From: Candidatus Latescibacterota bacterium
GTDB taxonomy: Bacteria; Latescibacterota; UBA2968; GCA-2709665
Reading direction: 5' to 3'
Assembly: GCA_965219455.1 (NCBI GenBank)
Contig: OZ244744.1
Coordinates: 5,472,001-5,536,000, forward strand
Length of the DNA: 64,000 nucleotides
Translations under genes and position numbers: made by a program
Notes under the pieces: generated by a model
Told to the model about the DNA's origin: nothing
Databases searched by the model: none
What the model saw: the letters and a program-made list of their open reading frames with translations, nothing else
Shown here: positions 9,342-24,242 of the stretch, piece by piece
How the letters are laid out: the number at the start of each line of letters is the position of its first letter
How positions within the stretch are numbered: position 1 is the first letter of the stretch

Positions 9342-9566
9342 TTACGCGAACTCATAGAGCGGCACTGTCGTTGCCTGCTGGCGGTCCTCCTCCAGCAGGC
9401 GTTCAATCCTTCGAACCGTGTCGAGATTCAGCAGCACATCGCCGCAAAAGGAACAGACTTCAGCAGGTACATGGTCGATGACGATCACTTGACCACGGCG
9501 CCGTACGGTGTGCATGATTGATTTCGCTTCGTATTCTCCGGGGCATCCGTCGATGCTGCGTTTCAT
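9342..9566 (-). CDS. YgiT-type zinc finger protein (MqsA-like; first Cys apparently lost)
   Basis: IVIDHVPAEVCSFCGD. The N-terminus MKRSIDGC lacks the first Cys. Confidence 0.8.
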   Translation of the reverse strand: MKRSIDGCPGEYEAKSIMHTVRRRGQVIVIDHVPAEVCSFCGDVLLNLDTVRRIERLLEEDRQQATTVPLYEFA

Positions 9567-9856
9567 ACGTAAAGCGCTTCCTCTTCAATGCGTTGAACGA
9601 AGGCAGTCTGGAGATTCTCACTTAGTCGGAGGATATCCACCTTGCAATCAAGGGCTTGCTCGATAAAGATGTAAAGTCCGACGAGATCGTCGAATCTTGG
9701 CTCTTTCAGCTCTACCACCAGGTCGACATCGCTCTTTTCATGTTGCATCCCAAAAGCATACGACCCATAGAGTCCGATCCGCTGGACGTCGAATCGACGT
9801 TTCAACTCAGGTTTGCTGTGGGCGAGAAAGCTGAGAATGTCCTGTCTCGATTTCAT
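9563..9856 (-). CDS. MNT nucleotidyltransferase (MntA-like), no HepT/DUF86 partner
   Basis: RIGLYGSYAFGMQHEKSDVDLVVE and LDCKVDI. Confidence 0.88.
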   Translation of the reverse strand: MKSRQDILSFLAHSKPELKRRFDVQRIGLYGSYAFGMQHEKSDVDLVVELKEPRFDDLVGLYIFIEQALDCKVDILRLSENLQTAFVQRIEEEALYV

Positions 9857-9911
9857 TGCCGCTTCTCAAATTATGGGTGAGTACGTTCAATGAAGGCATC
9901 AGAGGCGGTGG

Positions 9912-10081
9912 ACTACGAAATACGCGAAATATCGCGAAACAGGATTACGCGAAAGATGCTGTCTATAGTTCGTTTACGAAACGTTCGTATTCCAGTCCTG
10001 GATGATGTCCGAAATTGACGAGCAAGCCGAGTTTCACGCCTGTCGATCATAAATTTCGCGTTTTTTCGCGACTTTCGTAGT
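9912..10081 (-). mobile_element. Internally deleted copy of the IR-bounded GxxExxY element (170 bp)
   Basis: Inverted repeats at 9912-9939 and 10054-10081. 9963-10046 encodes STGVKLGLLVNFGHHPGLEYERFVNEL*, identical in protein to the C-terminus of 19967-20353. Followed by a helicase-tail copy (RIICPMGLIN) at 10082-10109. Confidence 0.85.
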
Positions 10082-10128
10082 TAATCAATCCCATAGGGCA
10101 AATGATCCGCTCTCCTGCCAAAACTTCA

Positions 10129-10326
10129 TCAGTCTGCCACGTCAGACCGAAGAATCGCCTGATTATCCAACCTCTTCCCTGCGTCGAGGATTTCAACGCC
10201 CGCGATCTGGCCGGCTTCATCGTAGTCCAGCGCGATTCCTTCCTCAATGAGGTCCGTCGTCACCGTTGTATCCTTAAGGCGAATGTATAGGGCATCCACC
10301 TTATGATCGTAAGAGATCTTCACCAT
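10129..10326 (-). CDS. DUF2283 family protein
   Basis: KISYDHKVDALYIRL...LDYDEAGQIAGVEILDA. Confidence 0.85.
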   Translation of the reverse strand: MVKISYDHKVDALYIRLKDTTVTTDLIEEGIALDYDEAGQIAGVEILDAGKRLDNQAILRSDVAD

Positions 10327-10379
10327 CGCCGCCTCATATTTCGATCTGGAGCGCAATCTCGCATGCTCACAGAGACCGC

Positions 10380-13300
10380 TCAGTCTAATACACTGAAATA
10401 GCCCCTACGTAGTAAATTTTCCCGCGCCTGTCGAGCGTTCTCACGAACTCGTTCGTCTTCGTGTTCAAGCCCGGCTGTCAGGATGGCCTTTGCATCGTCG
10501 GTTGGAATGACGAACCTGCCGCTTGTAGGCACGGCATTGATAAGCTTTTTAAAGCATTCGACCACCAGATGTGTATGAGTCGGGATCAGCGCTGGCATCA
10601 ATCGCGTAACCTCAAAAGGGAACGATGTTCTTCGGTGATCAACTCGACCCTCATCGAGAGTACCAGTTTCGTCGAGTATATTGTCAACGTCCAAAATCTC
10701 TGATAAAGCGTTCAGGCGCCACTCGACATCCAGGCACTCGGCTTTCAGCCATACGGCGACTTCTCGAAGTTCCATCGGTTCACGGGCGTCAATTCGCCAC
10801 TCGAAAAAGGCAATGATCTTGTCCTGTAAGCCTTCTTCTAGCGGATGGCCAGTATTTTGCAATGAATGCCCTACATAATTAAATAACGTCGCCCAATGCC
10901 TGTGTTCATCTTCGGTCTTCAGGTAAAAGCGTTCCAGCAGACTTTGGTCTCCATTCAGTGGATATACGCCCCACAGATAATACGTAAACAAATGTTGACC
11001 TAGCTTTGAGATCAACTCCCGTCCGATTCCCATTTGCTCGTTCAGGGAATGCAATTGTCCCAGCGCAAACTCGAAGTCGTCTCGAAATCTATAAAAAATA
11101 CGCTCGTAGGGGCGCGACCAGCGAAGGAAATTCCCAAACGCCGCCCGCCATGCGTAATTATCGCTTGTCGGAAAAATAGTGGATTTTTGGGTTATAGCCC
11201 ATTTCTCTTCGAGATTGAATATCCAACCATATAGCCGTCCGAGAATGGCATATTCGGGAATAGTCAGAGAATGCTCTGCCCGGGTCCCGCTCCGGCATTC
11301 AATGATCGCCTTCATTTCCGAAACTTCTGCTTTTTCGTCGTGTCTGCGCAACCAGAATCCAAAATTGACCAGAATCTCCAGAGCACGACCGCGGGTCGTG
11401 TTAATAGCATCAGTCAGCGGGTCTTCTCTATCCAATATGGTCTGACTGCCTTGATCCAGATCGGAATCATATTGCGTGCATAGCAACTTAAGGAGCCTGC
11501 CCAGCTGTCCGCGGACTACGATTGGCACGTTCACATCCCGTTTGACACAGGCTTCGACAAAGTCGCAGACAGCTCGCCGCGAGGAATGCCAACTAGGAGA
11601 CTCCCGTGATTCATCTGCAAATCGCGACCTTCTAGTACCTTCCTTACTCTCCGCTTCGGGACGGGTAAGTGTCCAGACGCAAAACCCTAACCATTGTTCA
11701 AGCTCGTCGAAATTCTTGGCACTCACATGGTCCCGCATTTCATCAACCATTGCCCGTACATAGATGGGCCGCAGTATGTTATCACGATTATTCATCCAAA
11801 ACTGTAGTCTATCTTTGTTCGGAATGATAGAATCCTTGAAAACCTCTTTGAAAGAAGCGGTCAGCGCTTCAATACTGATCTGAGTGAGCCCATTTTCTCG
11901 GTCCCAGTGTTCGTCGTCCCAGGCGTTTATGTAAGTGAGTAGATCCTCATCTGAAAAGCGCGCGAGCTCTTCGGGAGGTATCGGGCTGCGAAAGGTAGTA
12001 ACTCTATCTTCTGCAGAAAAGCTGACGGACGAGTAGCTCTCATCTGTGATTTCTTCTGCGGTTTCATCGGCTTCCAAGCTACGGAAGTAGTCCTCATATT
12101 TCCCAAAGAGCACTGGTGCGAACGGCCTGAGTTGCTGGCGATGGAAATACCTTCTCCGCTGCTCGAAACCAGTCTCAGTGAATTGCTCACTTGTCCATTC
12201 GTGAAATTCTTCCTCTGGAGGCCCGCATAGAATCTTATCGAAGATTTGTGTTCGTTCGGCAATCGAAAGCAACTCATCTCCGAAATGCTCACACGCCAGA
12301 CGTATCATCCGCTGAAACTCATACTGGTGTTCCCGTGTCGCATAATTCCCATGTCCGATCATTGACTCTTGAATCCACGGCTTAGTTTGCTCATTTGGGT
12401 GCAGCGAGTAAAGATGCTGTCGAACACGCTTGAAGACATCCCAGCGTCCATTCCTCAAGGCGTTATCCAAAGTTTCAATTGCCTCGCTAGTTTTGTCAAA
12501 AACCATTTCGCAGGCAAAGGTAAGTGTACGGACAAGGGTTTCTCGATGGTCATGATAGGCACGGCTTTGCCTGTCGAGTCTCGGACACCAGATTTCCGAT
12601 GAATCCCGACTCGACCCAACTTCGAGGAAGTCTTGACCGTGCTCATAACGAATCATGCTCGCTGCCGCATCGATAAGTATACGGGCAACCCGATATGGCT
12701 CTTTCTCGGCTATCGGGCGAATGCCATTTTCAAGGATAGCCCGATAATTCTCGTGAAATCGTGGTGCTGGATTCGGCAATGCCAACATAGATGTCACTTG
12801 ATCTTCGATGGAGGACGTTTGATCCTCCTCGATCTCCCGATGACGGTTCTGTTTTTCTTCGGCATCTGGGTCCGGGACAAACTGAATGAGTATATTTGCG
12901 AATTCCAACGCAGCGTCTGTTTGGCACGTGTCAGTCCAATGTGCTAGCAACTCGGGATATTGAAACGGGAAGAATTGGTGTTCAAGGTTGGCGTATTCGA
13001 GCATCTTGGGCTTCAGGCGTACGGACTGTTCACCGCCAAGTGCCAATGCTATGTCCAAAATAGCAGAATAAACCCTTGGATTATCGACTGCCGGAAGCTG
13101 CAAGACAATTCGAATAGTCTCAGAGACAATTTCCATTGAGGCGTCTTTGCACAAATTCTTTAGATATTCAAGCTCAGGCCAGAAAGGAAATTGAATTTGA
13201 CCGTCTGCCGATTCGACCACATTTGGTGGATCTCTGAAATAGCCATTTTGATGAAGAGGGTCCAGCCATATGTGATTAGTGGTGTTAAGAAAGAAATACC

Positions 13301-14052
13301 TGTAGTTCTCACCACGGCTATGAAGCAGCTTTAGCGCTCGATTTATTTCAATGGATGTGGGAGCGCTTCCCCTACCTAATATCGCCTTAAGTTCGGTGAG
13401 ATCTTCAGTGACAATTGGCACGGTCGGGTCGATGGGTTCCTCAATGAAGTCATCCGAGGTTAGCGCCGGTTTAAACGCTTCGACGTATTCTATCAAAGTG
13501 CCGTAGTAGGCGATGAATGGCCGCAATTTACATGCCAGTGAGAAATCCCCATCAGCACTCACGACCGCGATACTCGCTTTGTGCCTCTCGTGGTAGTCAT
13601 CCAACGCACTAAGAACAAAGGCATCCGGAAATTCCTTTGGCTTTTTCTTTGAAAACGGTGCCTCGATGGAAAAATACCAGTTCACTACATCGTTCAAATC
13701 TCCAACCAGCGGCAGTTGTTCAACGGTAAAATGCTCCTTGAAGACTTCCCACTGGTGCTCCAGTTCTGTCAGGCACTTTTCCTCCAACTTAATTCTTGGA
13801 GGTAAATCGCCTAACGAAAGTTCGCTAATCGGATGAGTATTATGGGCTTTATCCACGGCAGCAGCGGAATCTCTCGCTCTTTTTTTTATAGTGACGCAAG
13901 AGTTCTCGCTCCATCATTTCGGGTACTAATAGCCGAAGCCCACCCTTAACAAAAGTATCCTTTAGGATCTTAAACTCAGACGTATCCAGCTTGAGACCAT
14001 TCCTCACGAAGAATTCTGTATCGATATACAGTGATGTCGGTACGTGTCTCAT
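10380..14052 (-). pseudogene. Large PIN-like domain protein (~1223 aa if restored), frameshifted at an A8 tract
   Basis: The N-terminal part has LYIDTEFF...LLVPEMMEREL. The C-terminal part has APFSKKKPKEFPDAFV and VVSADGDF (PIN acidic motifs) followed by a long helical region. Removing one A at 13880-13887 joins 13849-14052 to 10380-13856. Confidence 0.8.
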
Positions 14053-15340: not shown

Positions 15341-18300
15341 TCAAACTAAGGAAATCTTCTCGACGATTTGAAAATCAATCGAGTATGTCGACGATATCCA
15401 TTCATCAATTTCGCGCAAACGGCGATCGGAGGGCAAGTCAGTAAGGCTTGATGGCATGAATCTTTCCTTTATCGATGTAGGTATATTCTTCTCACCGGCA
15501 TCCTGGTTTATACCGCGCACGAGTGAAACGAATGAGAACAACTCTTTAAGATCATCCCAACTTGCACCAATTCCTGAAAGGAACACGAAGTCGGCCCTTC
15601 TCGTTAGCGACGATAGTCTTTGGTAGTTGAAATTGCCGATGTATTTGCCAGCGTTCTTCTTGAAGACAAGCGCAGAATATCTATAATTGTGCAGCACCTC
15701 TCCGATGATTGCCAATCGATGCAAATGATCCTTTGGAATCGAAGAGATCGGTGCAACGAGATCCTCAAGTAACCAATTTGTGACGTGGAATCCATCACCC
15801 CTAGTTAGCCAATACCAGAAACCCGCGTCGCCCCCTGTGATCGCGAGAGCGGCGAAGGCCTCCTCTTTCGAACCCAACGCAACCCAGCCGGATTGCGACG
15901 GAACATGAACACTTCGGTCATCGAGGTGCAATACTGGTGGCGGCTCAATATACGTGGAGATGAAATTGCGCGCGGTTGGCGAAAATCCTAACTTGACAGA
16001 TTCACCACGTAGACCATGGCCCGAAGTTAAAACTGAAGTAGAAAACTGATTATGCATTGCTAATAATTTCGCTCCAAAACGGTTCGTTAGGCGGGGAATG
16101 CCGAAAGTTTCGTTCGGCATCACGTCATCGACTTTGTTGTAGGATATATTGTCCAACAGATAATCACGATAGGCTGCGCGCCACCTGTATAGACGGGTAG
16201 CAAACGAACCGATTTTTCGCGCGGAGGAATTCAGCCAGATTGTGCATCTCTGGCTAACTCCAGAAAATAGTGCGGCCGGTATGTTATCGAACGAAGAAAA
16301 CCAGTGAGTCCCGGTGTTCGCCAAAAGTTCACGTAGACCTGAAAACTCAAAGCTAAATGTCGTTGAAAGAGGAACAATTAACCCACGGCGTCCGCACCGG
16401 CTTGTTATGTGGTGCGACTGTACGACCACGTAACCATATATGTCGGGGAATCTTAAGCTCGTGGTAGACCGTACTATATAACCAACCGACTTGCGGCTTA
16501 CATAGGGAGGATTTCCGACAATCACGTCAAATCCGCCCTGTCGCATGATGCCGTAGAATTCGACAAACCAATGGAATGGCTGGTGACTGTTACGCCATTG
16601 CTCATAGGTAGCCGTGTCGCTTTCTTGAACGCCGTACTCGCTCGCCAAATATCGATCCAATTGTCGCCGCAGATCATCTAATCGTCTTCGCAATACTAAC
16701 TTCGCATTGACGAAAGCACCGGCGTCCATGTTCAAGCCGGTCTGCATGGTGTGGAATATGCGAAAAGCTCGGTTCGCTAATTCGGCGCGTTCTTCGATGT
16801 CGGGAAGAGATTGTTCCTTAAACAAGTCGCCCCGTATAGCACGTCTCACATCGTGGAGAGACGTAAAGCCAATCAGTGTGTTGCCGGCGCGTATATTGAA
16901 ATCGATGTCGGGCAATGGCTCAATCTGTTCGTAGCTTTTCAGTTGCGCGATGAGTTTAAGAAAGAGGCGCAATTTGCAGATTTCTACGGCCTCTTCCATG
17001 ATGTCCACACCATAGAGATTGTTGATAATGATGGACTTGAGTATGAAATATCGTTCACTGGGATGGGACTCGACCTGTTTGAGTATCTGTCGGAAGTCGC
17101 TCATTTTCTCGGGGCGGTGTTTACGCTTAGAGCGCTTCAAATCGTCCAGTAGCCCCCGCATAACCTCGAGGCAGGCAATGTAGATGGGCTCCAGGATGTT
17201 GAGCGCCGCGAACAGGAACGCGCCAGAGCCGCAGGTTGGATCCAGAATCGAGACGCTGGTAAGCCCTTTCCAGAAAGCACGGATCAATTCGGGGCCCTCG
17301 CTCCCGCGGATGACGTCCTCCGCGAATTGCTCAATGTCAAGATTATACGTGATAAGGTCATTGATGGCTGCGACCTGACCCGAAGCCAGTTTGGCGTAGA
17401 TGTCCTCATAGTGACGTCGGCGGGCGACGTGTTCGCGCCAGGTTTCAGTTGGCAGGGCATAGTCGCTTGTCGCGGGTTCATTCCAGCCGGCGCGTTTCGA
17501 GACATCGTCCACTCCTGCTGCTATCTCCTTAGGCAGGTCACGTTTTTGCGCGAGGTCTTCCTTCTTGTGAATATCGTACGTAATCCCGTGGCGGACCGCC
17601 TCGTAGAAATACCGATCCGGATCGTCCCGTAACAGCCGCCATACCCCACCGTCGGGTTTGAATTCGATGGAACAAGCCTTCTTCGCCCGGTCGAAAAGAA
17701 ACGGGATGACGGTGTTGCGGCTGATGTATCCGGTGATATCCTCTTTGGTGTAGTACGCCCCCATCTGCTTCTGGTTGATGTACTTTTCGAAGATGTAACC
17801 GAGCACGTCCGGGTTGATTTCATTGTCGTTGCGTAGAGGCCGGTCGTCCAGGTGCCACGTATAGGCATCGAAGAAGTCGAAGATTCTCTCGAACGCTTCA
17901 TCCGGAATTTGGATATCCGGATTGTCCTGCTCCAGATCGTGTACGTCGAACAGGCCGCCATTTAGAAATGGCACCTTACCGAGCAACGCTGCCAACTCCG
18001 GGGGGCGATTCTCCTCCGGTTGCCCAAGACCGTCATGGAACAATTTCAATAAAAACAGCCGGTAGAACCTGTTGAATCGCCCGTTTCCATATTGCTGCCG
18101 CACCCTTTGGAGCCGGTCCCGGAGGTATTCGGTGTTGTTGTCGAGGAACCCGCGTTTTTGAATGAAGTAGATGAACATCATTCGATTCAACATCAGCGAA
18201 GCATACCACTCTCGGTCCGCCCGTTCTCCGATTCCCTCGATGAAACCCAGAAAGTCCTGTTGTTCCTTCTTAAAGCGGTCGTAGAACCGTTTTGTGACCT

Positions 18301-18790
18301 TTTCTACGTCGAAGGCCGCGCGAACACGGCCGGATACGTCGACGATGGTAAGGTCATCTTCTTCGTCCAGTGTAAAGGCGAGATTCTCCAGCTTTTGGAT
18401 CAGTCGCTCTCCTGAATCCTCCTGGCGGAAGGACTCGGACCGGTGGCGGTCGGGCTGACCGGGTTCCCGCTTTACCCATTGCCATGCTTGTCCGGTTCGG
18501 TCGTGGGTGGCGTAAACGATGATGTGTTCGCGGACCTCTTTGGAGACAGCTGTTTCGATTTTCCGTCGAGTGGCATGTTCGGGAAACGTCGTCTCGGAGT
18601 CAGCAACACATTGGTAGGCGACCATGCCGCGTTTGTGGGCGACGGCCTCGAGGGCGAACGACTGCTCACCTACTTCAATAGCGGTATCGGCACCGCCATG
18701 GTCCCAGCCGAGTTCTTCGATAAAGAGCGTGCGGAGGTCGAATTTCTCAAGATGCGACCTGACTTTGTTTCTGTCTAGAATTAAGGGCAC
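15341..18790 (-). CDS. Large N6-adenine DNA methyltransferase (Eco57I/type IIG-like) with C-terminal target recognition region
   Basis: ILDPTCGSGAFL (motif I), YGVDI, FDVIVGNPPY (motif IV), FLNGGLF and GAYYT. Confidence 0.93.
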   Translation of the reverse strand: MPLILDRNKVRSHLEKFDLRTLFIEELGWDHGGADTAIEVGEQSFALEAVAHKRGMVAYQCVADSETTFPEHATRRKIETAVSKEVREHIIVYATHDRTGQAWQWVKREPGQPDRHRSESFRQEDSGERLIQKLENLAFTLDEEDDLTIVDVSGRVRAAFDVEKVTKRFYDRFKKEQQDFLGFIEGIGERADREWYASLMLNRMMFIYFIQKRGFLDNNTEYLRDRLQRVRQQYGNGRFNRFYRLFLLKLFHDGLGQPEENRPPELAALLGKVPFLNGGLFDVHDLEQDNPDIQIPDEAFERIFDFFDAYTWHLDDRPLRNDNEINPDVLGYIFEKYINQKQMGAYYTKEDITGYISRNTVIPFLFDRAKKACSIEFKPDGGVWRLLRDDPDRYFYEAVRHGITYDIHKKEDLAQKRDLPKEIAAGVDDVSKRAGWNEPATSDYALPTETWREHVARRRHYEDIYAKLASGQVAAINDLITYNLDIEQFAEDVIRGSEGPELIRAFWKGLTSVSILDPTCGSGAFLFAALNILEPIYIACLEVMRGLLDDLKRSKRKHRPEKMSDFRQILKQVESHPSERYFILKSIIINNLYGVDIMEEAVEICKLRLFLKLIAQLKSYEQIEPLPDIDFNIRAGNTLIGFTSLHDVRRAIRGDLFKEQSLPDIEERAELANRAFRIFHTMQTGLNMDAGAFVNAKLVLRRRLDDLRRQLDRYLASEYGVQESDTATYEQWRNSHQPFHWFVEFYGIMRQGGFDVIVGNPPYVSRKSVGYIVRSTTSLRFPDIYGYVVVQSHHITSRCGRRGLIVPLSTTFSFEFSGLRELLANTGTHWFSSFDNIPAALFSGVSQRCTIWLNSSARKIGSFATRLYRWRAAYRDYLLDNISYNKVDDVMPNETFGIPRLTNRFGAKLLAMHNQFSTSVLTSGHGLRGESVKLGFSPTARNFISTYIEPPPVLHLDDRSVHVPSQSGWVALGSKEEAFAALAITGGDAGFWYWLTRGDGFHVTNWLLEDLVAPISSIPKDHLHRLAIIGEVLHNYRYSALVFKKNAGKYIGNFNYQRLSSLTRRADFVFLSGIGASWDDLKELFSFVSLVRGINQDAGEKNIPTSIKERFMPSSLTDLPSDRRLREIDEWISSTYSIDFQIVEKISLV

Positions 18791-18809
18791 TTGGAAGTTT
18801 CCTGACGCG

Positions 18810-19268
18810 TTATGCCCGAACGAGATCGATTAGCGAAACGGTGTCGATTTCGTCGAATCGCGCGAAGTCGTCGTGGTTCTGCGTTACCAACGTTCGGATG
18901 CCATGGGTTGCCATTGTGGCAACGATATTGGCGTCATGCAACCCTTTGCCTTGAAGGTCATATTTCAATGCAAGTTGGCGCAGTTTGCCAGCGACATCCT
19001 GGGTTTCGTCAAAGAGTTGAAGGTGACGACGGAGCTCATCCACGTTGCCAACGACATCGCGGACGTTTAGACCAAATCCATTTGCACGAATGGGACGCGA
19101 TGCGACCACCATGTATTCCCTCAGAATCTGCCCACTTCCGGCGAGGCGAAGACCGCGCCTAGTGGACTCAGCCAGTAACCTTGTTGCTTCACGGTGTTGG
19201 GGCCGCGATTCGTCTGTCGCCGTTAAGAGCACGTTGGTGTCCAGAAACAGAATATTACCGGCCATCAT
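18810..19268 (-). CDS. PIN-domain (VapC-like) toxin
   Basis: LFLDTNVLL, QILREY, LHDANIVATM and LVTQNHDDF. Confidence 0.9.
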   Translation of the reverse strand: MMAGNILFLDTNVLLTATDESRPQHREATRLLAESTRRGLRLAGSGQILREYMVVASRPIRANGFGLNVRDVVGNVDELRRHLQLFDETQDVAGKLRQLALKYDLQGKGLHDANIVATMATHGIRTLVTQNHDDFARFDEIDTVSLIDLVRA

Positions 19269-19527
19269 CGCCATAGATCTCATCCCGTTTCCAGGACGTC
19301 GTCCTTCCAGTCCTGACTGTCACTATTTCCACCATTGGGACATCCGCGTCTGTCGTACTTGCCCCGTCAAACTCATCAAGACCGGATTCATCATCCGACC
19401 TGGGACGAAGAACGAAGCCGTCAGGCGCTTTCAAAATCTCGAGATCGTCTCCTGGACCGACCCCCAGCATGTTTAGCACCCGATTTGGCAGGGTGACCTG
19501 ACGTTCTGAGCTTATCTTTACAATCAT
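19255..19527 (-). CDS. AbrB/MazE-type antitoxin
   Basis: VKISSERQVTLP...LGVGPGDDLE; GGAGG SD; overlaps the PIN gene. Confidence 0.85.
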   Translation of the reverse strand: MIVKISSERQVTLPNRVLNMLGVGPGDDLEILKAPDGFVLRPRSDDESGLDEFDGASTTDADVPMVEIVTVRTGRTTSWKRDEIYGDDGR

Positions 19528-19549
19528 GGAGACCTCCTTCAAACCAGAT

Positions 19550-19844: not shown

Positions 19845-20384
19845 ACTACGAAATACGCGAAAAGACGCGAAACAGGGTTAGAGGTGGTGAACTACGAAAG
19901 ATACGAAATGACGCGAAAGGGGTGGTGTTGTATACGAAAAATACGAAAAAATGGGAAAGATGTGGTTTATAATTCGTTTACGAATCGTTCGTATTCCAGT
20001 CCTGGATGATGGCCGAAATTGACGAGCAGGCCGAGTTTCACTCCTGTTGATTTCACGTAGTTGATGACTTGTGCGCGATGTTCATCTTTCAATTGTTTCA
20101 CTGCCTTGATTTCCACAATAATTCTGTCGAAACAGAAAAAATCAGGCTGGTAAAACTGCTTCAACGCCTGTCCTTTGTAATGAAGTTTCAAATCTATTTT
20201 CTCCTTGTACGGGATCGCCGAAGAAGTGAATTCCATTGAAAGACACTCCTGGTAAACCGCTTCAAGAAAGCCGGCTCCTTTTTCTCTGTACACTTCAAAA
20301 CAGGCACCGATAATCCGATAGCTTTCCTCTTTGTAGACGATTTTTCCGGTCATACATTCCGCGCCCTTTCGCGACTTTCGTAGT
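19845..20384 (-). mobile_element. IR-bounded GxxExxY element (540 bp)
   Basis: ACTACGAAATACGCGAAAAGACGCGAAA at 19845-19872, with degenerate copies at 19890-19918 and ~19931-19952, and an inverted copy at 20357-20384, enclosing the GxxExxY gene. Confidence 0.7.
19967..20353 (-). CDS. GxxExxY protein (PD-(D/E)XK-like)
   Basis: GAGFLEAVYQECL, YQPDFFCFDRIIVEIKA, QVINY and GLLVNFG. Confidence 0.95.
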   Translation of the reverse strand: MTGKIVYKEESYRIIGACFEVYREKGAGFLEAVYQECLSMEFTSSAIPYKEKIDLKLHYKGQALKQFYQPDFFCFDRIIVEIKAVKQLKDEHRAQVINYVKSTGVKLGLLVNFGHHPGLEYERFVNEL

Positions 20385-20943
20385 TAATCAAGCCCATAGA
20401 GCAGATGATTCGGGGCTCCCGCGGTTCATCCTCCACCTCGAGAACGCGAGCCCCTCTTTACCGACGATTTTTCCAGTCATGCATTTCGCGTCTTTTCGCG
20501 ACTTTCGTAGTTAATCAAGCCCATCGAGCAGATGATTCGGGGCCCTACGTGGTTCATCCTCCACCTCGATAACGCAGACTCCTCTTTGCCGACGACTTTT
20601 CCAGTCATACATTTCGCGTCTTTTAGCAACTTTCGTAGTTAATCAAGCCCATCGAGCAGATGATTCGCGGCTCCTGCGGTTCATCCTCCACCTTGAGAAC
20701 GTGGACTCCTCTTTGCCGACGAGTTTTTCAGTCATGCATTTCGCGTCTTTTCGCGATTTTCGTAGTTAATCAAGCCCATGGAGCAGATGATTCGGGGCGC
20801 CCGCGGTTCATCCTCCACCTCGATAACGCGGTCTCCTCTTTGCCGACGATTTTTCCAGTCAAACATTCCGCGTCTTTTCGCGATTTTCGTAGTTAATCAA
20901 GCCCATCGAGCAGATGATTCGCGGTTCATCAGGTTCATCCTCA
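20326..20943. repeat. Tandem array of ~5 units, period 127/128 bp
   Basis: Units start at 20326, 20453, 20581, 20708 and 20835. The invariant core GTAGTTAATCAAGCCCAT starts at 20380, 20507, 20635, 20762 and 20889. Confidence 0.95.
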
Positions 20944-23900
20944 CCGTGGATGATGCAAAGCCGTCCATCCTCCCGCATTTCGATGACCAGTCCGGCGAGA
21001 TCATCGTCAGAGATTCCACTGCGCAATTGGCGGTTCAGCGTATCCACAGCGGATTGGCGCGGCGGATATCGGTATATCTCGCCCACTGCCCTGCGAAGTT
21101 GCTCTGTATCGAAGAGTGTGCCCTCGACCCTCTCGGCGTGATTCTTAAGCCGTTCATAGGTGCGGAAGCGCGCACCCGAGGGTCTTCCCAGTTGGCCCCC
21201 GACCTAATTCTCCTCCTTAGCTATGCGCTCAGCGGCTTTTCGTACAAGATCGTGATGGGTTTCGTGCCGGGGAAGCGCCGGTGTATTTGACTTGCATTCT
21301 GCTGCACGCAGAATTTCGAACTGGCTTTCCGTGACGCTGTACCCGTCCCGGTCCATCCACGCGAGGGCATCGTTGCCCTGTGTTGTACGCATGTATACAA
21401 GAACACCGTCCTGCCGGTCCTGTGTATGTACGCCGGATTTGGAGGAATGGACGACGTGAGGCATCTCCTCCACCTTTTTCTTCAGCGACGGATCAGCAGT
21501 CGTGGCGTTTCTCCAGATCTGGTAGGCATACGACGCAAGATCCACCTCGGAATCGTCATCGCCATCGAGGACTCCGGTCTGTTCGTTATATAGATCGACC
21601 ACCGCAAGAGTGTCCTCGTCCTCAAAAAAGGCTTCGTCGGTTCCCACCACTTCGGCGTTCTGTTCGAGGCGTTGCCGTACCCGGGCTCGCAGCCGAATCA
21701 GACGTTCGATGCCCTCCGCGGGTAGGAAGGAATAGCAGAGGATGTTCGGCGCCGATTGACCGATGCGGTCCACGCGTCCGGCTCTTTGGATCAGCCGGAT
21801 AATCGCCCACGGCAGGTCGTAATTTACGACAATGGCGCAGTCCTGAAGGTTCTGTCCCTCGCTCAACACATCCGTGGCAACCAGCACCCGGAGTTCCTCC
21901 TCCGGCGCGATCCGCCCACCTTTCTCGTTGCTTGTGGGACTGAATCGCCAGGCCAACCGCGTGGGATCCGTGGAGCCGCCAGTAACGCCCGAGAGACGTT
22001 CGACGCCTCCGTCCATTAATTGACGTTCCAGGTATTGCACCGTGTCCGCGAACTGCGTGAATACCAGAACCTTCTCACCTGGATGTTTATCCACAAGGAT
22101 CTTCTGCAGAGCGGCAAGCTTGGCGTCGTGTGACGGAATCCATTCACCGAAGTTCTCCAGCATTTCACGTAACGTTTTCGCATCCGACACCAGGGCTTGC
22201 CGAAGTGTCTCGTCGAAATGACGCGGGCTCAGCCAGCGAAATCGCCTTCTGTATCGTTCGCGGTAGGCATGGTAGACTCGTGCGGCGTGGCGCCGGAAAT
22301 CTTCTTCTGTTCTGAGAGATTTCCGAGCTGGAAATCCACCGTCCCCGTCTCCGTCGTCGTCAGAATCGTCGCCGGCAGCACCGTCCGAGTCCGCGTCGAA
22401 AGATTGAGGGTCCAGCAGCCCTGCGTCTGTCGTCCCGATCGGCAGATCCAGACCGTTTTCTATGGCATGGATAAAGATGAAATTCCTCAGTACGTGTCGC
22501 TCAACCGAGAGCTGGAACGAATGACCGCTGCTTTCAAGGCGTTTGAATAGGTTCGTCCGGCAGAATCCCATGAGGCGCCTGCCGGCGCGCGACAGGTCCT
22601 GCAGGATTCGATCCTCGGTCGACGATGGCGGCGGATCGGCCGCGGAGGTCAGGTAGTTTGCCAGACCGTAACGCGGGAGTTCTAACCCGTTAATGGCCGA
22701 TACCACATTGTCGTCAAAGAGCCGGGCGTATTGTTTGTCGATATCGAAGCCAACTGTCCTGGGAACGCGGACGGGGAAATAGGATCGCGTGCCGTCTTCG
22801 AATGTCAGATATCGTCGGCCATTAGCCGTATCCAGCGTGGCATAATTCTCCTGAATGAAGCTGCGAGTGCGTCGTACAAGGTACAGGCGCATCAATTCGC
22901 GCCAGTCGTCCGCATATTCAGATTGCTCGAATGCCGCGAGCGAACGGACGGGCGCCTGGTGGCGTCGGATGAACTCGGTTTCGCCGATCTCTCGCAACAG
23001 GCGTTCGGGACGAATGCCCAGGTCTTCATTCTCAGACACAAACAACCGGATCTGGTTTGAGAGATCCTGGTAGGTCTTGTTGTATGGCGTGGCGGAAAGC
23101 AGAATGCACTTGCTTTCATTCTCCGCGATGTATTCCTGGATTGCCCGGTATCGCTTGCCCTCACGGTTCCTTAGATTATGACTCTCGTCAATCACCACGA
23201 GGCGATACCGGCGCATGTCCGGAAGTTCGCGGGTCGCGCGGCTGATCGAAAGAACCCGGGCGCGCATCCGATACTCTTCGCGATAATCCTTCCACATCGG
23301 CACCAGGTTCTTGGGGCAGATAATCAGCGTTTCAACCCCATAATCATCTTCAAACACGCGCGCTAAAGCCGTGGCCATTAGCGTTTTACCGAGCCCAACG
23401 ACATCGCCAATAATGACGCCGCCGCGTTTGTTCAGGTGATGCGCGGCGATCTTCACGGCGGCCACATGGAAATCGAGAAGCTTATTCCCGAAATCTCTCG
23501 GTATACGGAATTCCGTCAGACCCGCTCGGGCTTCCTGGGACAGGTGATAAGCCATCTTCACGTAAATATGGTACGGTGGGATCAACCGCGGCCCCGCCCA
23601 ACTCTCGTCGATTATCTGCGCGAGTTCCTTAGAAATATCAACGCACCAGCGGTCCTGCCAGCGATCTTCAAACCATTTCGCGAGTTTCTCACAGGAATCG
23701 TGATCCAGAACATCCACGTTTAGTTCGCCCTGGCCGGAAAGACCGGATTGCGTAAGATTGCTGCTGCCCAGGTACCCCACTGAAGGGTTGACGGGATCCG
23801 GCCGGAACAGCATGTAGAGCTTGGCATGAAGCGGATGTCTGAGGAAGAGCTTGACCACGACCTTCTTGGCCTTGATTTGCCTCGACAACCTGCGGAGTCC

Positions 23901-24242
23901 TGCCTCGTCCACGTTGCTAGGTGCGCCCGTCGCCAATTGGTCCCTGAACTGTTCCGCGAGCTTTTTCTTTTCTTGATTGACCTTCTGATTGTCGAGTTCC
24001 TCATTTTTTGCAATCAAACTCCTTGTATTTCGAAACTGCTCGTGAGGCGATCCATGCATGCCTACAAGCAGGCGGCAGCAGTTTCCTTCCCCACCCTGCC
24101 ATCTCTCAACATATTCATCGATCGCCCGCCAACCTCGCAAATTGAAGTAGCCCACACAGAAATCTGCGCGGTCAGAAACCGCCATTGTTTCCGCCAAAGC
24201 CAGCAAGAGACGCTGTTCAATATTGTCGAAAATCCGTGGCAT
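20859..24242 (-). pseudogene. PLD-nuclease + SF2 (SNF2-like) helicase, interrupted by in-frame TAG at 21204-21206
   Basis: LHAKLY...GSSNLT (PLD), DVVGLGKT, IDESHN, LSATP, LSEGQNLQ and QRAGRVDRIG. The reading continues in frame as EEN*VGGQLGRPSGARFRTYERLK...RIICSMGLIN. Confidence 0.88.

Follow-up and report, generated by a model that had tools for sequence, protein, structure and literature searches.

The 170-bp element at 9912..10081 of the window (the whole 64,000-nt stretch of DNA analysed) is probably what is left of a second GxxExxY cassette after a loss of 299 bp in place, the helicase tail beside it being a flank that the cassette carried along. The element is likely a product of ordinary decay and not a mini-transposon that jumps. 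An earlier note on this DNA had described it as a non-autonomous derivative of the MITE kind, inserted at a target motif in helicase sequence.

The 170-bp element and its setting

The window is a defence island, with genes for a PLD-SNF2 helicase, a type IIG-like methyltransferase, and HNH, PIN, AbrB, nucleotidyltransferase and HEPN proteins. Its source genome (5.84 Mb) is called G000 here; other G numbers denote relatives, L numbers loci, and X numbers sequencing runs with contigs. Two junctions are of concern. Site 1, between the helicase end and the methyltransferase gene, holds an intact cassette, and site 2, between a DUF2283 gene and the nucleotidyltransferase gene NT1, holds the 170-bp mini, 10 kb away and in the identical orientation. 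The features are as follows.

9563..9856, minus strand: NT1, a nucleotidyltransferase gene, to the right of site 2
9912..10081, minus strand: internally deleted GxxExxY cassette of 170 bp (the mini, 'allele B')
9912..9939, minus strand: 3' arm of the mini
9963..10046, minus strand: GxxExxY codons 102-128 plus stop (stop at 9963-9965)
10047..10050, minus strand: ATGA, in which the GxxExxY start codon overlaps the tail frame's stop codon (TGA); the deletion junction is at 10047/10046
10054..10081, minus strand: 5' arm, three units of ~9 nt with core ACTACGAAA; in frame, the end of the helicase tail (NYESREKTRN)
10082..10127, minus strand: helicase C-terminal tail as flank (ERIICPMGLI), similarity weak beyond 10109
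10129..10356, minus strand: DUF2283 gene, left neighbour of site 2
15341..18790, minus strand: type IIG-like restriction-methyltransferase, usual downstream partner of the helicase
19845..19918, minus strand: 3' arms of the intact cassette, two units
19967..20353, minus strand: intact GxxExxY gene at site 1 (PF13366 PDDEXK_3), predicted Cas4/lambda-exonuclease-like fold
20325..20942, minus strand: five tandem units of ~127 bp, each made of helicase tail, 5' arm and the first ~20-30 nt of GxxExxY
20859..24242, minus strand: PLD-SNF2 helicase, its 3' end forming site 1; TAG break at 21204-21206

The anatomy given in the earlier note holds up. Both inverted repeats are kept, as arms of 28 nt each that are 86% complementary and 114 nt apart. 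After the ATGA, the last 27 codons of GxxExxY encode the peptide STGVKLGLLVNFGHHPGLEYERFVNEL* (9966-10046), identical to that of the full copy, with six synonymous differences and no replacement. The alignment that the note proposed pairs 9951-10047 with 19955-20051 at 91% identity (BLAST E 4e-32). Gene positions +5 to +303 (299 nt) are absent, and with codons 2-101 the mini lacks the conserved residues G26, E31, Y34, D71, E81 and K83. Directly after the DUF2283 stop, the upstream frame reads EVLAGERIICPMGLINYESREKTRNL*; a helicase tail stands there with no helicase body, the tblastn match near the mini being confined to residues 95-114 of the helicase C-terminal piece. Homology of the tail is weak in the 60 nt further upstream, where the best of 16 comparisons stood at 7 of 500 shuffles and the others at 21 or more.

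The strand of the mini forms one long hairpin (as DNA, z −3.9 with 0/200 shuffles as good; as RNA, z −2.5 with 2/200), and an Rfam search returned no match of note. A contig from run X2, possibly the assembly's source study, covers 9702-10368 with 0 differences, and one from run X4, a different study, spans 9978-12011 with 2 differences. Since both contigs cross the junction, it is not an assembly slip.

BLAST and pattern scans of the 5.84-Mb genome, the search for further deleted derivatives that the earlier note suggested, turned up no second two-armed mini; the arm pairs are those of the mini and the full cassette only. There are 17 arm matches in the genome, of which 7 fall in the window, and the rest are unpaired; three lone 5' arms in a triplicated region are part of a different repeat. 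Elsewhere the genome has three distant GxxExxY genes (36-43% identical). No target-site duplication accompanies the mini, as its 31-nt flanks share only 4-5-mers, none of which abuts both ends. Given its solitary state and the missing duplication, the mini is not a dispersed MITE.

Several features of the island lie outside this question. The helicase is split by an in-frame TAG (21204-21206) in G000 only; six relatives have CAG or AAC there, which rules out the conserved read-through of the stop hinted at by tblastn breaks. The large PIN-domain gene has an apparent frameshift near 13850. At 18775-19549, another cassette of 448 nt replaces the AbrB2-PIN pair in strains from runs X2, X4 and X6. 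Cassette swapping between AbrB1 and the methyltransferase is ongoing.

Site 2 in relatives and the deletion alleles

A 1.4-kb query gave partial matches in 27 of 61 genomes, including all 14 congeners, and close GxxExxY relatives come from MAGs of Latescibacterota or Gemmatimonadota. We compared the islands of G000 and 10 relatives, and further a second G005 contig and the G026 locus. In 5 of the 11 islands (G000, G002, G004, G005, G006), NT1 has a cassette immediately in front of it. There is none at that position in G001, G009, G011, G013 and G019, and the G007 stretch shows no NT1. At the DUF2283-NT1 junction itself, G005 has a full gene, G000 has allele B, and G004 has another deletion (+18 to +263) together with an insert of ~1.2 kb, which may be IS630-like. 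No empty DUF2283-NT1 junction was found in the islands compared, and hence the cassette's arrival at site 2 was not observed. In G002 (L036) and G006 (L040), a deletion that removed the methyltransferase block has left the PIN gene with its first ~33 codons, now joined to the tail at site 2; G002 is additionally without the helicase body but keeps a tail remnant.

Run X11 bears on the state of site 2 before the deletion. One of its contigs, 1261 nt long, aligns with 10047-11098 and differs there in 13 letters. A joint, also at depth 2.05, leads from 10047 through 16 other letters to gene position +21. X11 appears to hold a ~99% identical strain with the 5' part of the gene behind the same DUF2283-tail-arm flank, as judged from ~190 nt of gene covered at low depth (2.05), with joint and long piece assigned to one contig by their equal depth. 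The start sequence of this site-2 gene is unlike that of site 1. Joints from 20340 to 10047 in runs X4, X6 and X11 (23-48 letters on the short side) are a separate matter: these are site-1 arms mapping onto the mini, the five-unit array being outside the stretch compared, and not recombination or circles. Among the contigs no excised circle of 10 kb came to light, though contigs could miss one.

The substitutions in the mini speak to the age of the loss. Under neutral decay, six synonymous changes with no replacement would have a probability of 2.5e-4 to 7e-4; about three of the six are private to the mini, and one (codon 102) is at the deletion junction. Other minis have decayed, with 8 replacement codons in G007 and 4 in G009. 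From the synonymous-only divergence and the X11 allele, it therefore follows that an intact second gene likely lost its middle recently and in place.

Deletion has recurred. Six genomes hold six deleted copies, which represent three alleles, and both arms are kept in every one. Allele A (+18 to +263 lost) occurs in G004, G005 and G006, allele B (+5 to +303) in G000, with a junction microhomology of just 1 nt, and allele C (about +21 to +294, joined at CTAC) in G007 and G009. All five two-copy genomes have one full and one deleted copy. Of those with a single copy, G001 and G013 carry it in full, while that of G002 is frameshifted and that of G007 is a mini. A single strong full-length GxxExxY match is found in each of 7 of the 14 congeners and in G000. 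Allele A occupies site 1 in both G005 and G006. In G004 it is found at site 2 instead, behind the DUF2283-arm join that also precedes the full copy of G005. This shared join and the changed junction point to exchange through the arms.

The arms on both sides differ in number and sequence in every genome. The five 127-bp units of G000 are 81-89% alike; G013 has two units, the second 98% like unit 5, and the arrays of G001, G005, G006 and G009 are built differently.

A separate, true MITE family, with ends CACACCTGTCCAA and TTGGACAGCAGTG and a length of 178-684 bp, has captured the cassette 5' arm along with other hairpin repeats. The captured arm is accompanied by a stretch of helicase tail 9-10 nt long and by ~18 nt from the start of GxxExxY. 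The family was found at L044-L073 in congeners and in G000 at C1:3596475, 3609897, 3611717, 1488807-1489089 and 4616060-4616303. Its left end is present in 28 of 30 loci, its right end in 16 within the sequence available, and an exact 7-9-bp duplication at 7 (6 independent); no transposase-like frame was recognised as an autonomous partner at three genomic places. Allele A minis hold a piece of this family's end. A lone arm-like unit also lies within another dispersed repeat of ~150 bp (G000:C1:3007196 and 3651903, L059, and the islands of G001 and G009), and at L075 (G026:C1:3591500-3594000) gene-less arm doublets in both orientations stand on the 3' side of a frameshifted cassette.

The helicase tail and the supposed target motif

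The earlier note took the sequence before the arms, GGNTTGATTA, for a target that the element tracks. The motif does precede all 5' arms of this family in the window. However, of 26 such sites in G000, an arm is present at 6 and 20 are empty, and two unrelated cassettes with the arm core ACTACGAA (L023, L025) follow the stop codons of other genes with the motif absent. GGNTTGATT encodes the conserved end of the helicase, and the motif is found in 80 of 80 metagenomic helicase loci, none of which has this cassette. Across the phylum, 30 helicase loci comprise 8 filled at this codon (7 congeneric and one from another genus) and 22 empty; of the latter, 8 have the exact ATGGGCTTGATT. The length of tail carried ranges from about 14 nt (G004) to 45-60 nt elsewhere, with joins at microhomologies; in G006, ATC(G/A)TCT joins the gene start and the tail. 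On these sequence comparisons, the motif is the native helicase C-terminus, likely carried along as flank, and a target motif of the kind stated in the earlier note is not supported.

Both flanks may be traced in G004: at its site 2, just as at site 1, the 3' arm is followed by CCAATGACTCT, the start of the methyltransferase. Hence both site-1 flanks travelled with the cassette, and recombination consequently fits better than target-directed insertion.

One observation is partly in favour of the earlier note: G026, of another genus, carries the cassette at the same helicase codon, and its helicase groups with empty alleles (90/99 support). Identity between G026 and G000 is 75-77% for GxxExxY, 72-80% for the helicase and 70% for the methyltransferase. 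With all three genes similarly diverged, two gains and old descent with losses are indistinguishable. The last ~15 nt in G026 are similar to the tails of genus-1 units. Taken together, allele A in different junctions and the second-genus cassette at one codon point to relocation mediated by the arms, as far as sequence comparison can tell.

The junction takes up other DNA as well. In the 80 metagenomic loci, the methyltransferase lies within 100 nt of the helicase in 61, other inserts are present in 11 (L101, L131, L130 and 8 others), and 8 have no methyltransferase in the available DNA. Two of the inserts have heptamer-like GATGAAG repeats and one a hairpin repeat. The helicase-methyltransferase junction is a general insertion hot spot.

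Origin of the element and comparison with known systems

The parent gene matches PF13366 (E 4.5e-40), and its GxxExxY and PD...ExK motifs are conserved in 16 aligned proteins. Folding from these 16 sequences gave pLDDT 94 in one of five models and 47-53 in the other four (38 from the single sequence). The predicted fold is nearest to Cas4 SSO0001, lambda exonuclease and RecE (E 2e-4 to 4e-3; TM about 0.4-0.55), and as modelled it is not that of a DDE or HUH transposase. It is possible that such an enzyme, if the model is right, resects at the arms and causes local deletions and duplications. Searches for a PDB sequence match and a PADLOC match gave none. In the literature searched (subscription journals and supplements being outside its scope), there are only passing mentions, one of them a sentence in which such a gene is taken for cas4 (10.1101/2021.01.26.428298), and the gene-plus-arms cassette seems to be undescribed.

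In the scheme that we favour, the tail before the mini would be flank brought from the older home of the cassette, the helicase-methyltransferase junction. The cassette would have reached site 2, and would move between island junctions, by recombination via arms, tail and microhomologies, not by target-directed transposition. The deletions could come from slippage at short homologies, or from gap repair, in the loop that the arms enclose, and would be tolerated thanks to the intact copy 10 kb off. Several observations run against this scheme. Plain drift would not call for the arms to be spared, yet both are present in all six deleted copies; the junction of allele B offers 1 nt of microhomology; and the cassette of G026 occupies the same codon on a separate helicase branch.

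An alternative that we hold to be unlikely is that the cassette is an active, nuclease-driven element. The Cas4/lambda-exonuclease-like protein would then act at the arms and re-enter the helicase 3' end with short co-conversion; minis and tail-arm arrays would be aborted repair products, which an intact copy can still shuffle between junctions. In its favour, the same codon is filled in seven congeneric alleles and one of another genus while sister alleles are empty, the G026 end resembles genus-1 unit tails, and the predicted fold resembles those of Cas4 SSO0001 and lambda exonuclease (E 2e-4 to 1e-3). Arms that vary genome by genome would fit as well, as would breakpoints of deletions, duplications and captured arms that cluster 4-28 nt into GxxExxY, two of the three deletion 3' breakpoints lying ~10 nt or less from an internal arm-like AACTACGTGAAA (a post hoc observation). 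The clustered breakpoints have microhomologies, however, and therefore need no enzyme to explain them. Old shared descent with losses accounts equally well for G026, and the cassette is missing from all 80 other helicase loci. The wider proposal built on this reading is likewise doubtful, namely that arm-bearing GxxExxY genes form an undescribed class of mobile element, in which the protein works on its own arms and, in this genus, re-enters the 3' end of a defence helicase, aborted repair yields tail-arm arrays and gutted copies, the arms become points of exchange by which toxin-antitoxin and restriction cassettes are shuffled around the island, and the intact copy moves the minis.

Mobilisation in trans of a MITE-like non-autonomous derivative to GGNTTGATTA, as the earlier note envisaged, is quite improbable. 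What remains of that description is that the ends are kept and the interior deleted, recurrently (three alleles), leaving a short element with terminal inverted repeats of at least 10 bp (the 28-bp arms), no intact enzyme gene and no coding capacity, and preceded by the motif like every 5' arm of its family in the window. A single copy without target-site duplication, at an inherited site where relatives have the gene whole or with another deletion, is not what such mobilisation predicts, nor are the 20 empty motif sites and a partner protein that lacks a transposase fold; dispersed same-size copies and a cognate transposase are missing as well. Least probable of all, and very much so, is that the site-1 junction was duplicated once in this lineage and the copy then decayed neutrally, a course of events that the earlier note had named as the case against its own reading. 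The two copies are indeed in direct orientation, 10 kb apart, with tail and arm in common. This alternative fails because the mini is free of replacement changes over 27 codons; moreover, site 2 is common to G002, G004, G005 and G006, and X11 has a 5'-intact allele with a start sequence of its own.

With the mini read as a decay product, its value lies in the natural experiment it offers on a protein family that is very large and whose function is unknown: a pre-deletion allele apparently survives in a near-identical strain, both arms were spared by three independent deletions, and one allele now sits at another junction. Should the nuclease be the driver, these events would represent a novel type of mobile element and a means by which cassettes are reshuffled within defence islands. 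Otherwise they would show that repeat arms are enough by themselves to create a hot spot of rearrangement, and why a gutted cassette can so readily pass for a MITE.

Free-standing homing endonuclease genes are optional nuclease genes at a fixed conserved junction, with filled and empty alleles and degenerate copies. The cassette resembles them in the filled (8) and empty (22) alleles of one helicase site and in its degenerate copies; it differs in its predicted exonuclease-like fold and its repeat arms, and in other bacteria the family uses many unrelated junctions.

The parent gene clearly belongs to the PDDEXK_3 family (PF13366, GxxExxY), for which a table row in PMC3424549 gives function unknown and multiple transfers; the passage there is silent on arms, insertion sites and deleted derivatives. 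Prokaryotic MITEs, as outlined in PMC11602168, are IS-derived elements of 50-800 bp, with terminal inverted repeats of at least 10-15 bp, that arise by internal deletion of a gene-bearing parent. The mini is like them in size, terminal inverted repeats and birth by internal deletion. Unlike them, it is single-copy, has neither target-site duplication nor transposase partner, occupies a site inherited from a full-length allele, and has arms made of tandem 9-nt units and not IS-type ends. With REPIN-RAYT systems, as portrayed in PMC3116915 and PMC3337134, the cassette shares hairpin repeat pairs tied to one small, vertically persisting enzyme gene. The partner here is a PD-(D/E)XK protein of predicted Cas4/lambda-exo-like fold, in contrast to the Y1 HUH transposase RAYT, and gene-less inverted doublets do not form a genome-wide population. 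A parallel in mechanism is homology-facilitated illegitimate recombination, in which integration that is homologous on one side and illegitimate on the other is an established route (summarised in PMC3240628). Homology at one end and microhomology at the other fit the variable tails and junctions seen here, although this is a general route and not an element, and site 2 requires non-homologous joins on both sides.
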